A stretch of 64,000 nt of DNA from Escherichia coli O157:H7 (GCF_013167455.1 NZ_CP038328.1), one strand, 5' to 3'. Positions 22,408-60,558 are shown, counted from the first letter of the stretch. The notes: generated by a model from the letters alone, not told the origin. Program-made: numbers and translations.

Positions 22408-23652
22408 TTAATTACGCAGGGCGCTATTTGCCAGACGATCGTCTTCCGCCTGGCAAGCTGCCGCAGTGAACAGCACGTCAGTTGAAGAGTTCAGAGCGGT
22501 TTCGCAAGAGTCCTGCAATACGCCGATAATAAAGCCGACGGCAACCACCTGCATGGCGATATCGTTCGAAATACCGAACATATTACAGGCCAGTGGGATC
22601 AGCAGCAAAGAACCCCCCGCCACGCCGGATGCGCCACAGGCACACAGAGAAGCCACTACGCTCAACAGCAGCGCTGTGGGCAGATCGACCGGAATACCCA
22701 GCGTATTAACCGCAGCCAGCGTCAACACGGTAATGGTGATTGCTGCGCCCGCCATATTGATGGTGGCTCCCAGCGGAATAGAAACGGAATAGGTATCGCG
22801 ATCCAGATTCAGCTTTTCACACAGTGCCATATTCACCGGAATGTTCGCCGCAGAGCTGCGGGTGAAGAAGGCATACACGCCGCTTTCGCGCAGGCACAGC
22901 AGCACCAGCGGGAACGGGTTACGACGAATTTTCCACCACACCAGCAATGGGTTAACCACCAGCGCCACCAGTAACATACAGCCAACCAGCACGACCAGCA
23001 GTTGCGCGTAGCCCCACAGTGTGGAGAAACCGGTGGTTGCCAGGGTAGAAGAAACCAGACCAAAAATACCAATCGGTGCGAAGCGAATGACCAGTTTCAC
23101 CATAAAGGTGACGGCATTCGACATATCGTTGACCAGGTTTTTGGTGGTCTCGTTACCGTGACGCAGTGCGAAACCGAGGCCAATTGCCCACACCAGGATC
23201 CCGATGTAGTTACCTTTCAGCAGCGCGTCGATGGGGTTGGAAACCATGCTCATTACCAGCCCGCGCATCACTTCTACAATGCCTGACGGTGGCGAAATAT
23301 CACCCGCGCTACTGGATAAGTGCAGGGTAGAAGGGAAGGCGAAGCTGAAAACGACTGCGGCCAGAGCAGCAGAGAAGGTACCCAGCAGATAGAGGAACAA
23401 AATAGGGCGGATATTGGTTTTCTGCCCGTGCTGGTGGTTAGCAATAGATGCCATCACCAGCATCAACACCAGGATGGGGGCAACGGCTTTCAGTGCGCCG
23501 ACGAACAAAGTACCTAACAGACCAACAGCTTCCGCCGCGGGTTTTGAGATCCATGCCAGAAGAATCCCCAGAACAAGGCCGACCAGGATTTGTTTTACCA
23601 GGCTGCCATGAGCCAGACGCCGGAATAGCCCCGGTGAACGTTGCGTAGTCAT
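22408..23652 (-). CDS. sstT: Serine/threonine:Na+ symporter SstT
   Basis: 414 aa, DAACS-family transporter sequence. Confidence 0.92.
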
Positions 23653-23892
23653 TTTTCGATCCTTTCATTGTGTTGTCGCACATCCCTGGTGCGTTCTGTC
23701 GACGCATCTTTCAGGATGTAACAAAGTGTTTGCAAGGTCGAGTATAAGGAAAGTTACAGCTTCGGGAAGCGAAAAATGCTGGATTTTAAAGAGAGGTCAT
23801 ATTTTGCAACTTAATGGTTACATTTATTTGACATAAAAATAAAGCCAACGTGCGGCTTCCAGACTGAGGACTACGTCAAAAAAGGACTCGGT

Positions 23893-23998
23893 CAGTCCCC
23901 TCGCCCCGTTTGGGGAGAGGGTTAGGGTGAGGGGAACAGGCCAGCATCGGTGCGAAAAATTACCCTCACCCCGACCCTCTCCCTGGAAGGGAGAGGGA
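23893..23998. repeat. GC-rich multi-hairpin intergenic repeat (boxC-like)
   Basis: Nested inverted repeats CCCCTCGCCCC/GGGGAGAGGG, GGGTGAGGG...CCCTCACCC and CCCTCTCCC-TGGAA-GGGAGAGGG between the sstT promoter and the alx stop. Confidence 0.5.
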
Positions 23999-24050
23999 GA
24001 AAACGGTGCTCATGTTGATGACAGGGTACACGGCTTAGGCAGATTAAAAA

Positions 24051-25016
24051 TCATCCAACCCGCTGCTTATCATGCCGATAATTCACCCAGGCGTTGATAA
24101 TAAACGTCATCACCAGGATGCCAAACACCACGCCCAGCGAGACGGCGATTGGAATATGGTAGAAGTCGACAATCAGCATCTTGATACCGATAAACACCAG
24201 AATCACCGCCAGGCCATATTTGAGCATCGAGAAACGCTCTGCTACGCCCGCCAGCAGGAAATACATCGCACGCAGGCCGAGGATCGCAAACAGGTTTGAG
24301 GTCAGCACAATGAACGGGTCAGTGGTCACGGCGAAGATAGCCGGAATGCTATCCACGGCAAAAATCACGTCGCTCAATTCCACCAGAATCAGTACCAGCA
24401 TCAGCGGTGTGGCGTACAGCAATCCATTCTTACGCACAAAGAAATGCTCGTTGTCGATGGTGTCGGTCATGCGCAAATGACCGCGTAGCCAGCGCACCAG
24501 CGGCTTGTCGCCAATGCCTGATTCATCTTCATGGGCGAGCGCCATCTTCACGCCGGTAAACAGCAGGAAGGCACCGAAGATATACAGGATCCAGTCGAAC
24601 TGCGAAATCAGCCAGCTGCCAGTGAAGATCATGATGGTACGCAGAACAATCGCCCCGAGCACGCCATACACCAGCACGCGGCGTTGTAATGCCGCCGGAA
24701 CGGAGAAATAGCTGAACAACATCAGCCAGACAAAGACGTTATCGACCGCCAGCGACTTCTCAATCAGATAACCCGTGAGGAAGGCCAGCGCCTGTGGATC
24801 GGCAACGGCGCGACCTTCGGTTTGTACCAGATACCACCAGAAAGCAGCGTTAAACAGTAACGACAGCGTCACCCAGACCAGCGACCAGGCCGCAGCCTGT
24901 TTCATGGTCATGGCATGTGCCCCACGACGTCCCTGCAACAACAGGTCGATAGCCAGCATAATGGCGACAACAACAGCGAATCCGCCCCATAGCAACGGCG
25001 TGCCGACAGTATTCAT
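24051..25016 (-). CDS. alx: TerC-family membrane protein Alx
   Basis: 321 aa polytopic membrane protein. Confidence 0.9.
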
Positions 25017-25270
25017 AGAAGTTCCTTACACATAAAAAAAACGGCCAACGTCGGAAGACGTCAGCCGCTGCTTTTTATGCATAGACCTCGCCTTCCGGCA
25101 AGGTCTCACTTACAACAAAAAAGGAATACGTCTGCGTATTCCTTTCGGGTTGCCCGGTGACCGGATGTGGTTTTTCACACATCGTAATGACGATCGACCG
25201 GCAATGAAGTTACTCCCCTTTGCAGGTAACAAAGTATGACAGACCATTCAGTCAGTCAATGGTCTGTTAC
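25017..25270 (-). promoter_or_regulatory. alx 5' leader: yybP-ykoY-type (Mn2+/alkaline-pH responsive) riboswitch-like element
   Basis: Minus-strand leader contains the hallmark AAAGGGGAGUAAC motif plus two hairpin/U-run structures (GAAAGGAAUACG-CAGA-CGUAUUCCUUUUUU and GACGUCUUCCGACGUUGGCCGUUUUUUUU) upstream of the alx ATG. Confidence 0.6.
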
Positions 25271-25299
25271 ATACCTTTTACACTGTTTTACTTTGGCAA

Positions 25300-26286
25300 T
25301 TATAGTTTTACGCTATCTGCCGGAAAAATCACCCCAGTCTGGCGGCGGATCTCGGTCAGCAGTTTGGCTGTGATGCGACTGACCGCCAGCCCTGGATGAT
25401 CCACCAGATGCTCATCCACCAGGGTAGCGAACAGCTCTGCTTCGTAGAGCATGGTATTAATATGCTGCGGCTGGGTGAGATCCTGCATCTGGCTGCCACG
25501 CGGCACGAAGCACACTTTCTGGCATTCAGACAGTTTTTCAATCACCAGCGATCCCGCTTCGCCCTGAATCTCGCTTGCCAGGACAGAATCGCTGACCTTT
25601 GAGTGCTGCAAGGTGACGCTGAAATCACCGTAATCCATCACCACCACGCCGTGGGCATCTACACCACTTGCCAGTAAACTGGCGGTTGCCTGCACGCTTT
25701 TCGGCTCACCAAATAACGCTACCGCCGACGCCAGGCAGTAAAAGCCGATATCCATAATTGAACCGTTAGAGAATGCCGGATTAAAGGTGTTGGGATTCTC
25801 ACCGTCCAGGTAACGTTGATACCGCGAGGAATACTGGCAATAGTTGAAAAAAACTTTCCGCAGTTTGCCGACTTTCGGCAGCGCCTGGCGTAACAGATGA
25901 AAGTTAGGCAGGCTGGCCGTTTTAAATGCCTCAAACAGCACCACCTGATTTTCACGCGCGCAGGCAATGGCTGCATCCACTTCCGCCAGATTCGACGCCA
26001 GTGGTTTCTCACAAATCACATGAATTTTGTGGCTCAGGAAAAGTTGCGTCTGGGAAAAATGCAGGGCGTTCGGGCTGGCAATATACACCGCGTCGATAGC
26101 GTCACTTTCCGCCATTGCTTCCAGCGAAGTAAACAGATGCTCGACAGAAAACTCATTGGCGAAGTGCTGGGCCTGTTCAAGGCTGCGGGAATAAACGGCG
26201 GTTAACTTATATTTACCGCTTTCATGTGCGGCCTCCACGAACTGGTGAGTTATCCAGTTCGTACCAATCACGGCGAAACGTATCAT
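25300..26286 (-). CDS. ygjR: Gfo/Idh/MocA-family NAD(P)-dependent oxidoreductase YgjR
   Basis: ATG at 26286 (MIRFAVIGTNWITHQF... Rossmann N-terminus); 328 aa. Confidence 0.85.
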   Translation of the reverse strand: MIRFAVIGTNWITHQFVEAAHESGKYKLTAVYSRSLEQAQHFANEFSVEHLFTSLEAMAESDAIDAVYIASPNALHFSQTQLFLSHKIHVICEKPLASNLAEVDAAIACARENQVVLFEAFKTASLPNFHLLRQALPKVGKLRKVFFNYCQYSSRYQRYLDGENPNTFNPAFSNGSIMDIGFYCLASAVALFGEPKSVQATASLLASGVDAHGVVVMDYGDFSVTLQHSKVSDSVLASEIQGEAGSLVIEKLSECQKVCFVPRGSQMQDLTQPQHINTMLYEAELFATLVDEHLVDHPGLAVSRITAKLLTEIRRQTGVIFPADSVKL

Positions 26287-32062: not shown

Positions 32063-32452
<390 letters not shown>

Positions 32453-48024: not shown

Positions 48025-48099
48025 GGTGGCCCCTGCTGGACTTGAACCAGCGACCAAGCGATTATGAGTCGCCTGCTCTAACCACTGAGCTAAGGGGCC
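48025..48099 (-). tRNA. ileX: tRNA-Ile2 (anticodon CAU, lysidine-modified; K-12 ileX)
   Basis: Minus-strand sequence GGCCCCTTAGCTCAGTGGTTAGAGCAGGCGACTCATAATCGCTTGGTCGCTGGTTCAAGTCCAGCAGGGGCCACCA folds as a cloverleaf; encoded CCA end; anticodon loop CTCATAA. Confidence 0.9.
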
Positions 48100-60431: not shown

Positions 60432-60558
60432 GTAGGCCGAATAAGGCGTTCACGCCGCGTCCGGCAATCAACGCTTGATGCGACGCTTGCGCGTCTTATC
60501 AGGCCTACAACTGTCGTTGACATGTAGCCGGATAAGGCGTTTACGCCGCATCCGGCAA
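60432..60558. repeat. BIME: three REP palindromes in alternating orientation
   Basis: GTAGGCCGAATAAGGCG...; TGATGCGACGCTTGCGCGTCTTATCAGGCCTAC; GTAGCCGGATAAGGCGTTTACGCCGCATCCGGCAA. Confidence 0.75.

Follow-up and report, generated by a model that had tools for sequence, protein, structure and literature searches.

The G/C-rich element between alx and sstT in Escherichia coli O157:H7 is, judged by its sequence, a type A and a type B BoxC repeat arranged as an inverted pair at 23898-23997 of the window (the whole 64-kb stretch of DNA that was analysed). BoxC is a G/C-rich, non-coding, chromosomal and intergenic dispersed repeat of E. coli. The family has been known since the 1990s and was first described at fabI, a gene with a BoxC family member upstream of it in K-12. 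Four names refer to this one family: BoxC, PIT element, TM_ECO intrastrand-triplex motif, and HPG1/HPG2 G-quadruplex motif. The exact copy at alx-sstT has already been catalogued in K-12, at least twice, so it is not new and has to be regarded as ordinary. As for its role, the inverted pair is probably a passive, structure-prone repeat that makes its locus unstable and has no dedicated regulatory job.

The identification rests on published catalogues. Table 1 of Holder et al. contains 23 TM_ECO intrastrand triplex motifs in K-12, among them no. 12 (CCCTCTCCCTTCCAGGGAGAGGGTCGGGGTGAGGGT, type B, K-12 3,239,599-3,239,634) and no. 13 (CCCTCGCCCCGTTTGGGGAGAGGGTTAGGGTGAGGGG, type A with mismatch, K-12 3,239,698-3,239,662) (Holder et al. 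2015, PMC4666352). The two units in the window are TM_ECO 12 and 13 base for base, and the published coordinates fall between alx (ends 3,239,545) and sstT (starts 3,239,944) in the K-12 annotation (NC_000913.3). No base differs between O157:H7 and K-12 across the element, so that TM_ECO 12/13 and the O157 copy show zero sequence-level difference; the window itself is 100% identical to several O157:H7 chromosomes. The genes on either side are the same, and the inverted A+B pairing is that found at five K-12 loci (PMC4666352). Comparable findings on inverted A+B pairs by Hoyne et al. are noted in the same paper (PMC4666352). The TM_ECO motif had been described earlier as BoxC, and Hoyne and Maher later came upon it again as the PIT element (PMC4666352). 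In the work of Kaplan et al., the G-quadruplex (G4) motifs HPGQ 35 (HPG1) and 34 (HPG2) correspond to the alx-sstT locus (Kaplan et al. 2016, PMC5100583). HPG1 and HPG2 have the same sequences as the BoxC units, namely GGGAGAGGGTTAGGGTGAGGG and a CC/TC-loop variant (PMC5100583); HPG1/HPG2 and TM_ECO are the G4 and the triplex reading, both from in vitro work, of one repeat. BoxC is also included among the known stem-loop repeat families of E. coli, with a length of 56 bp and 32 copies described and 22 recovered by HMM (PMC2267715).

Within 23898-23997, two units of 36-37 nt face each other in inverted orientation across a 27-nt spacer. Each follows the pattern CCCTC[G/T]CCC-loop-GGGAGAGGG-loop-GGGTGAGGG, that is, a pyrimidine block (CCCTC[T/G]CCC), a complementary purine block (GGGAGAGGG) and a third block (GGGTGAGGG), joined by short loops. 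The type A unit, with one mismatch, occupies 23898-23934 on the plus strand (TM_ECO no. 13, HPGQ no. 35). Its C-block CCCTCGCCCC (23898-23907) is followed by the loop GTTT, the purine block GGGGAGAGGG (23912-23921), the loop TTA (23922-23924) and the third block GGGTGAGGGG (23925-23934). Beyond the spacer AACAGGCCAGCATCGGTGCGAAAAATT (23935-23961), the type B unit lies on the minus strand at 23962-23997 (TM_ECO no. 12, HPGQ no. 34). Here the C-block CCCTCTCCC (23997-23989) precedes the loop TTCCA, the purine block GGGAGAGGG (23983-23975), the loop TCG (23974-23972) and the third block GGGTGAGGG (23971-23963), after which a single T follows. Type A therefore has loops of 4 and 3 nt and type B loops of 5 and 3 nt, and the G-rich unit in alx-sense RNA is that of type B. 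The second loop is diagnostic of the type in the published scheme, being TTA in type A and CCG or TCG in type B, with pairs made of one A and one B unit in inverted orientation (PMC4666352). Pair 12+13 is named by Holder et al. as an example of the A+B arrangement (PMC4666352), and the alx-sstT pair has TTA on the plus strand and TCG on the minus strand. The preliminary description had placed the element at 23893-23998, within 5 bases of the true unit borders (23898-23934, plus strand; 23997-23962, minus strand).

The composition of the element sets it apart from its surroundings. GGGWGAGGG occurs five times in the 64-kb window, always within 23913-23997, against an expectation of 0.51, and none of 100 shuffles reached five. 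The longer combination GGGAGAGGG-N0-8-GGGTGAGGG is present once per strand in the window, at 23913-23933 (plus) and 23983-23963 (minus), with 0.00 expected. An inverted-repeat search returned arms of 24 nt (23913-23936 and 23960-23983, 88% complementary) as well as a perfect 10-nt hairpin (23975-23984 and 23988-23997). The element has a GC content of 0.57-0.62, compared with 0.28-0.42 in the 150 bp on its sstT side. In its left half GC skew ranges from +0.30 to +0.35, and in its right half it is about -0.08, so the skew flips between the arms. Motif content, inverted arms and folding all agree with the G/C-rich stretch of inverted repeats that had been described at the outset.

The tri-block anatomy allows the G-rich strand to adopt a hairpin, a purine-motif triplex or a G-quadruplex. 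With G*G:C, A*A:T and T*A:T scored as legal triplets and the third block antiparallel to the purine block, all 9 of the purine-motif triplets in type B are legal (seven G*G:C, one A*A:T, one T*A:T). Type A has 10 triplets, 9 of them legal, and its single A:G Watson-Crick mismatch corresponds to the published 'mm' variant. Canonical G4 motifs (four G-tracts of at least 3, loops of 1-7 nt) lie at 23912-23934 on the plus strand and 23983-23963 on the minus strand. With DNA parameters, the 106-nt stretch folds at -33.1 kcal/mol on the plus strand (z = -5.6) and -30.4 kcal/mol on the minus strand (z = -4.6). The DNA-parameter fold yields exactly three hairpins, where up to three had been proposed, and single DNA hairpins reach -9.6 kcal/mol for type A and -10.6 kcal/mol for type B. 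With RNA parameters the result is one long nested stem, at -70.6 kcal/mol on the plus strand (z = -5.2) and -66.1 kcal/mol on the minus strand (z = -4.2), and no shuffle was as stable.

Further copies are found in nearly every E. coli genome. When the 116-nt element was used as blastn query, all but one of the 5,426 complete E. coli genomes (5,425) had matches, and the median number of places in a genome was 16. Chromosomes hold 78,730 of the 78,759 places, and all 13 K-12 loci inspected are intergenic. Twelve other K-12 loci were retrieved by their published coordinates. Each unit type has its own conserved flanks at these loci, so conservation extends past the 36-nt motif. On the left, the family-conserved flank of type A (23880-23897, ...G[C/T]GC.C.....GTC), recognised by its similarity to the K-12 composites, also precedes single type A units in K-12. 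On the right, at 23998-24010, the upstream flank of type B, AGAAAACGGTGC, is family-conserved as well and is common to the copies at hrpB-mrcB, ygfF-gcvP and fepB-entC.

The similarity extends beyond the single unit. In three of the five K-12 pairs (alx-sstT, fepB-entC and ygfF-gcvP) the whole composite is common, with 89-90% identity over 106 bp and 78-81% in the 27-nt spacer, and outside roughly 23880-24005 identity among the K-12 composites is ~30%. At the left border similarity climbs from ~30% to 60-90% inward of roughly 23880; at the right border identity falls off past about 24005-24020. Because both spacer and flanks are shared at three loci, a composite of ~125 bp has been copied as a unit. 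Two points are added here beyond Holder et al.: the shared repeat in three of five K-12 pairs is the whole ~125-bp composite including its spacer, and the alleles of the alx-sstT locus were counted across 5,426 genomes. Copy number also differs among strains, with 8-11 blastn places per genome in the O157:H7 chromosomes listed and 14-26 in the other E. coli strains listed, which points to a loss or decay of BoxC copies specific to the O157:H7 lineage.

REP/BIME elements are a close point of comparison. Like BoxC, they are short, GC-rich, intergenic palindromic repeats, often located in 3' UTRs and capable of forming stable RNA stem-loops. However, they belong to another sequence family: BoxC has a third G-block that REP does not have, and the REP consensus is absent here. 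In an Rfam search of the whole window, naRNA4 (RF02564, REP-derived nucleoid-associated RNA) scored above the gathering score at 32115-32196, 32215-32296 and 60435-60505, all on the plus strand, and gave no match on the element; the three matches mark REP/BIME clusters in the window. No Rfam family was significant on the element, where only sub-threshold, miRNA-like hairpin matches appeared. These were set aside as chance matches to a long GC hairpin. The initial view that the element is boxC-type rather than REP is supported by this naRNA4 result and by the presence of the locus in the published TM_ECO catalogue, which is that of BoxC/PIT. Elsewhere in the window, a tRNA gene lies at 48027-48099 on the minus strand (RF00005, 73 bits).

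The host intergenic region is 398 bp long, and both neighbouring genes are on the minus strand according to the ORF listing and the K-12 annotation: alx at 24051-25016, with the element beginning 54 nt past its stop codon, and sstT at 22408-23652, with the element ending 245 nt upstream of its start codon. In minus-strand order, the alx stop (24051) is followed by the element (23997-23898), a terminator-like hairpin (23859-23841) and then sstT. This hairpin, GAAGCCGCACGTTGGCTTT with the U-run ATTTTTATGT behind it, is the predicted alx terminator (23831-23859, minus strand) and stands outside the repeat. It is the only terminator-like site that the terminator scan found on the coding (minus) strand in 23600-24100, and it stays separate, with 7 bp, in a fold of the whole 3' region. 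Since this terminator-like hairpin is ~40 nt downstream of the element, the element would lie within a predicted alx 3' UTR of ~215 nt, upstream of the predicted terminator, and not between terminator and promoter. The position given in the preliminary description therefore stands as far as the two genes are concerned, but not in its placement of the element between the alx terminator and the sstT promoter.

Two side observations concern the same region. Right after the element on the alx-sense strand, at 23872-23892 (minus), a small GGACT-GACCG-AGTCC hairpin followed by TTTTTT looks terminator-like by eye; it is absent from the terminator-scan output, and the MFE fold pairs this stretch otherwise. 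The alx leader (25017-25350, minus strand), a described riboregulator, gave no Rfam match of the yybP-ykoY type (Mn/pH riboswitch) at the gathering threshold or at an E-value <=10. The missing match may be a filter or model issue. A riboregulator in the alx leader is credited to Nechooshtan (2009), as cited in PMC10888264.

The alx-sstT locus is polymorphic, with three common alleles in the 5,426 complete E. coli genomes: the intact pair, a collapsed hairpin and TRIP1d. The intact pair was assigned to about 2,605 genomes (48%), namely those with a best element match at least 95% identical, a figure that agrees with 14 of 30 evenly spaced rows. About 1,137 genomes (21%) have the collapsed allele; this is what remains of the 3,742 genomes with coverage of 80% or more once those with the intact pair are taken away. 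In this allele (CCCCTCGCCCCTTTTGGGGAGAGGGAGAAAACGG), seen in strain S1-IND-02-A and in B2-type strains, exactly 76 bp are gone between the direct GGGAGAGGG 9-mers at 23913-23921 (plus) and 23989-23997, which form the ends of the deletion. One hairpin is kept, whose arms are unit A's C-block and unit B's outer G-block. Since its two halves carry the flanks of two BoxC subtypes, the collapsed allele is derived from the pair. Because the deletion ends are direct 9-mers that bracket the palindrome, direct-repeat misalignment offers a concrete mechanism for one such event. Holder et al. noted a 'palindrome effect' (PMC4666352), and the collapsed allele is an instance of it. In E2348/69, ISEc13 lies in the loop of the collapsed hairpin between duplicated copies of CCAAAAGGGG. 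This insertion is 1,550 bp long and IS4-like, with the IS50-like ends CTGTCTCTTATACACA... and ...GATCAAGAGACAG (1112-2661 of retrieved stretch L125), and its insertion point corresponds to near window 23908-23912.

The TRIP1d-type allele accounts for 1,660 of the 5,426 genomes (30.6%). These have other sequence in place of the whole stretch between 23838 and the alx stop, the terminator-like hairpin included. The replacement is ~430 bp long, as in E. coli DETEC-S792, where positions 986-1415 of retrieved stretch L004 stand in place of window 23838-24050. Its core (query 71-354) belongs to another dispersed repeat, found at a median of 3 places in a genome, and agrees with the TRIP1d position published by Li et al. 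(2024, PMC10888264). TRIP1d thus occupies the same alx-sstT intergenic region as the BoxC pair (PMC10888264), but it is unrelated to BoxC in sequence, measures 146-273 bp and replaces the pair together with the terminator-like hairpin, so that the two do not coexist. An identification of the three shared composites as TRIP1 repeats was rejected; TRIP1 is a different repeat, which replaces the BoxC pair in other strains. Within the DETEC-S792 replacement, at 1147-1312 of L004 on the minus strand, there is a sub-threshold Rfam match to TwoAYGGAY RNA (RF01731; 33.1 bits vs a gathering score of 43, E = 0.007). TM_ECO loci are more variable than control loci (PMC4666352), and the polymorphism at alx-sstT fits this published high variability.

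Outside E. coli, a pattern scan with one genome per species returned at least 120 stretches, with about a dozen genomes among the matches listed. The sources among these listed matches are Candidatus Contendobacter, Afipia, Polaromonas, Hyphomonadaceae, Hyphomicrobiales, Novosphingobium and Archangium, together with MAGs labelled 'Deltaproteobacteria', Verrucomicrobia, 'Pseudomonadota bacterium' and 'bacterium'. Among the matches listed, a complementary C-block lies within 10 nt in 117 of the 136 G-block matches that have enough upstream sequence, and it takes only two forms, CCCTCGCCC (60) and CCCTCTCCC (57). The same listed matches include at least 13 inverted pairs, and a different longer repeat surrounds the motif in each genome. 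The exact blocks, the mismatch variant CCCTCGCCC included, recur in Alpha-, Beta- and Gammaproteobacteria, Myxococcota, and the 'Deltaproteobacteria' and Verrucomicrobia MAGs. As the motif has already been reported from more than 260 genomes (Holder et al. 2015, PMC4666352), its breadth beyond E. coli was known; that breadth across distant bacteria is the least explained property of the family.

In the Polaromonas MAG, the tri-block motif is embedded in a ~95-nt repeat that has conserved flanks of its own as well as a second hairpin. This repeat reads TGAATTGGAC...CACCCTCGCCCTCT-GGGAGAGGG..GGGGTGAGGG-ATTGAGCGTTCTGA.TGTCATGAGTTTTGAAACGCTCAATAG and occurs in stretches L064, L068-L070, L074, L082-L083, L085, L094-L095 and L103. 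In the MAG GL140_5, two more flank subtypes surround the motif. From these sequences, it seems that different repeat families have reused the tri-block motif as a module.

Several other explanations of the element have to be weighed. A chance GC-rich palindrome without family identity has practically no probability left and is refuted by the shuffles (0 of 100), by the folding on both strands (z of -4.2 to -5.6) and by the median of 16 places per genome. The preliminary description had made the reality of the feature depend on additional copies in E. coli genomes and on a stable predicted fold; both were found, and the feature is accordingly real. The same description had suggested that the element could terminate or insulate transcription, its GC-rich hairpins stopping RNA polymerase from alx or shielding the sstT promoter. 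The element does lie between co-oriented genes, its RNA hairpins are very stable, and for some motifs Kaplan et al. regard a terminator role, speculatively, as plausible (PMC5100583). A Rho-independent terminator is likewise a GC-rich hairpin downstream of a stop codon, but it has a U-tract, whereas the BoxC-pair hairpins have none and the canonical-looking terminator stands apart from them. On the minus strand, the sequences after the hairpins of the element are TCGGGG..., TAACCC... and ACTGACC; no U-tract follows any of them, and the terminator scan flags none, only the separate site at 23859-23841. In the account given by Holder et al., Hoyne and Maher (2002) found neither promoter nor terminator activity for these elements; RNA polymerase and reverse transcriptase were unaffected, and DNA polymerase was blocked in vitro, with no replication effect in vivo (PMC4666352). 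Moreover, the intact pair is missing from the locus in ~52% of E. coli genomes, and some family members are located between divergent promoters, as at fepB-entC and yagA-yagE, a placement that does not fit a dedicated terminator. A role in termination or insulation is thus very unlikely, and the terminator reading was rejected. It is also improbable that the pair is a MITE-like or REP-like mobile element, a ~125-bp composite with the BoxC units as terminal inverted repeats, copied to new sites by a transposase. The inverted units resemble TIRs; the family has many dispersed, intergenic copies, and its presence differs among strains. The whole composite has been copied as a unit to three K-12 loci, and the same motif is embedded in different longer repeats of distant genomes. 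Yet no flanking direct repeat indicating a target-site duplication was seen at the borders of either unit or composite. No clean empty site was found among the E. coli alleles of the locus, where the alternatives are internal deletion and replacement. The family is almost absent from plasmids (29 of 78,759 places), and Holder et al. report no link to transposons, phages or plasmids (PMC4666352). In two inspected cases of distant inverted copies in other genomes, the genes in between were not a transposase but a narK-like transporter (L007) and a vapBC-like pair (L009).

A regulatory switch between G4, hairpin and duplex, in which the G-tracts of each unit form a G4 in K+ and compete with the C-block hairpin, follows from Kaplan et al. 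(2016). In a variant of it, the type B unit could form an RNA G4 in the alx 3' UTR. Both arms fit the formula of four G-tracts (G3+) with N1-7 loops and are the only such motifs in the 64-kb window. K-12 as a whole has only 52 canonical G4 motifs, and two conserved groups among these are the BoxC repeats; by CD, the transition between G4 and hairpin depends on ions in vitro (PMC5100583). Against this, the support is in vitro, and the adjacent, perfectly complementary C-block and, in this pair, the whole opposite arm strongly favour Watson-Crick pairing (-66 to -71 kcal/mol). The same oligonucleotides have been read as triplexes, the intrastrand triplex having been demonstrated in vitro by CD and NMR with a negative DMS footprint in vivo, and the flanking genes have no common function (PMC4666352). 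Such a switch is considered unlikely. The recurrence of exact blocks across distant bacteria, each time in a different genome-specific repeat, leads to a further reading, in which the tri-block is a recognised signal. RAYT transposases read REP, and BoxC is not known to have a RAYT-like transposase. By analogy, a widely conserved protein or mobilisation machinery would read the hairpin and the third block. At alx-sstT, alx mRNA stability or sstT read-through would then be modulated either in this way or by an RNA switch between G4 and hairpin in the alx 3' UTR. This is quite unlikely as a whole. A motif that stays unchanged in very distant bacteria, CCCTCGCCC included, is not obviously explained by passivity and speaks against the passive-repeat reading.

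A passive, structure-prone repeat thus remains the explanation held to be probable, and a course of events can be proposed for it. As duplex DNA the pair would be inert. Where a strand is exposed in replication or transcription, the quasi-palindrome and the G-blocks would fold, misalignment of the direct GGGAGAGGG 9-mers would lead to deletions, and the pair would in this way act as a local fragile site. In the TRIP1d allele a second repeat family occupies the same site, so the instability could belong to the intergenic site rather than to the element. REP elements can slow the 3'-exonucleolytic decay of mRNA. By analogy with them, the pair in the alx mRNA would be a very stable 3'-UTR stem-loop that might at most slow such decay.

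As a discovery the element matters little, having been catalogued at this exact locus under a family with four names. Its practical value is for annotation: the right label for the stretch, which lies in the 3' region of alx, is a BoxC pair (TM_ECO 12/13) rather than a terminator or an unknown element. The puzzle lies at the level of the family and not in this copy: a motif conserved almost base for base across phyla. With its three common alleles, the alx-sstT locus is a convenient natural test bed for the effect of BoxC on mRNA fate or genome stability.
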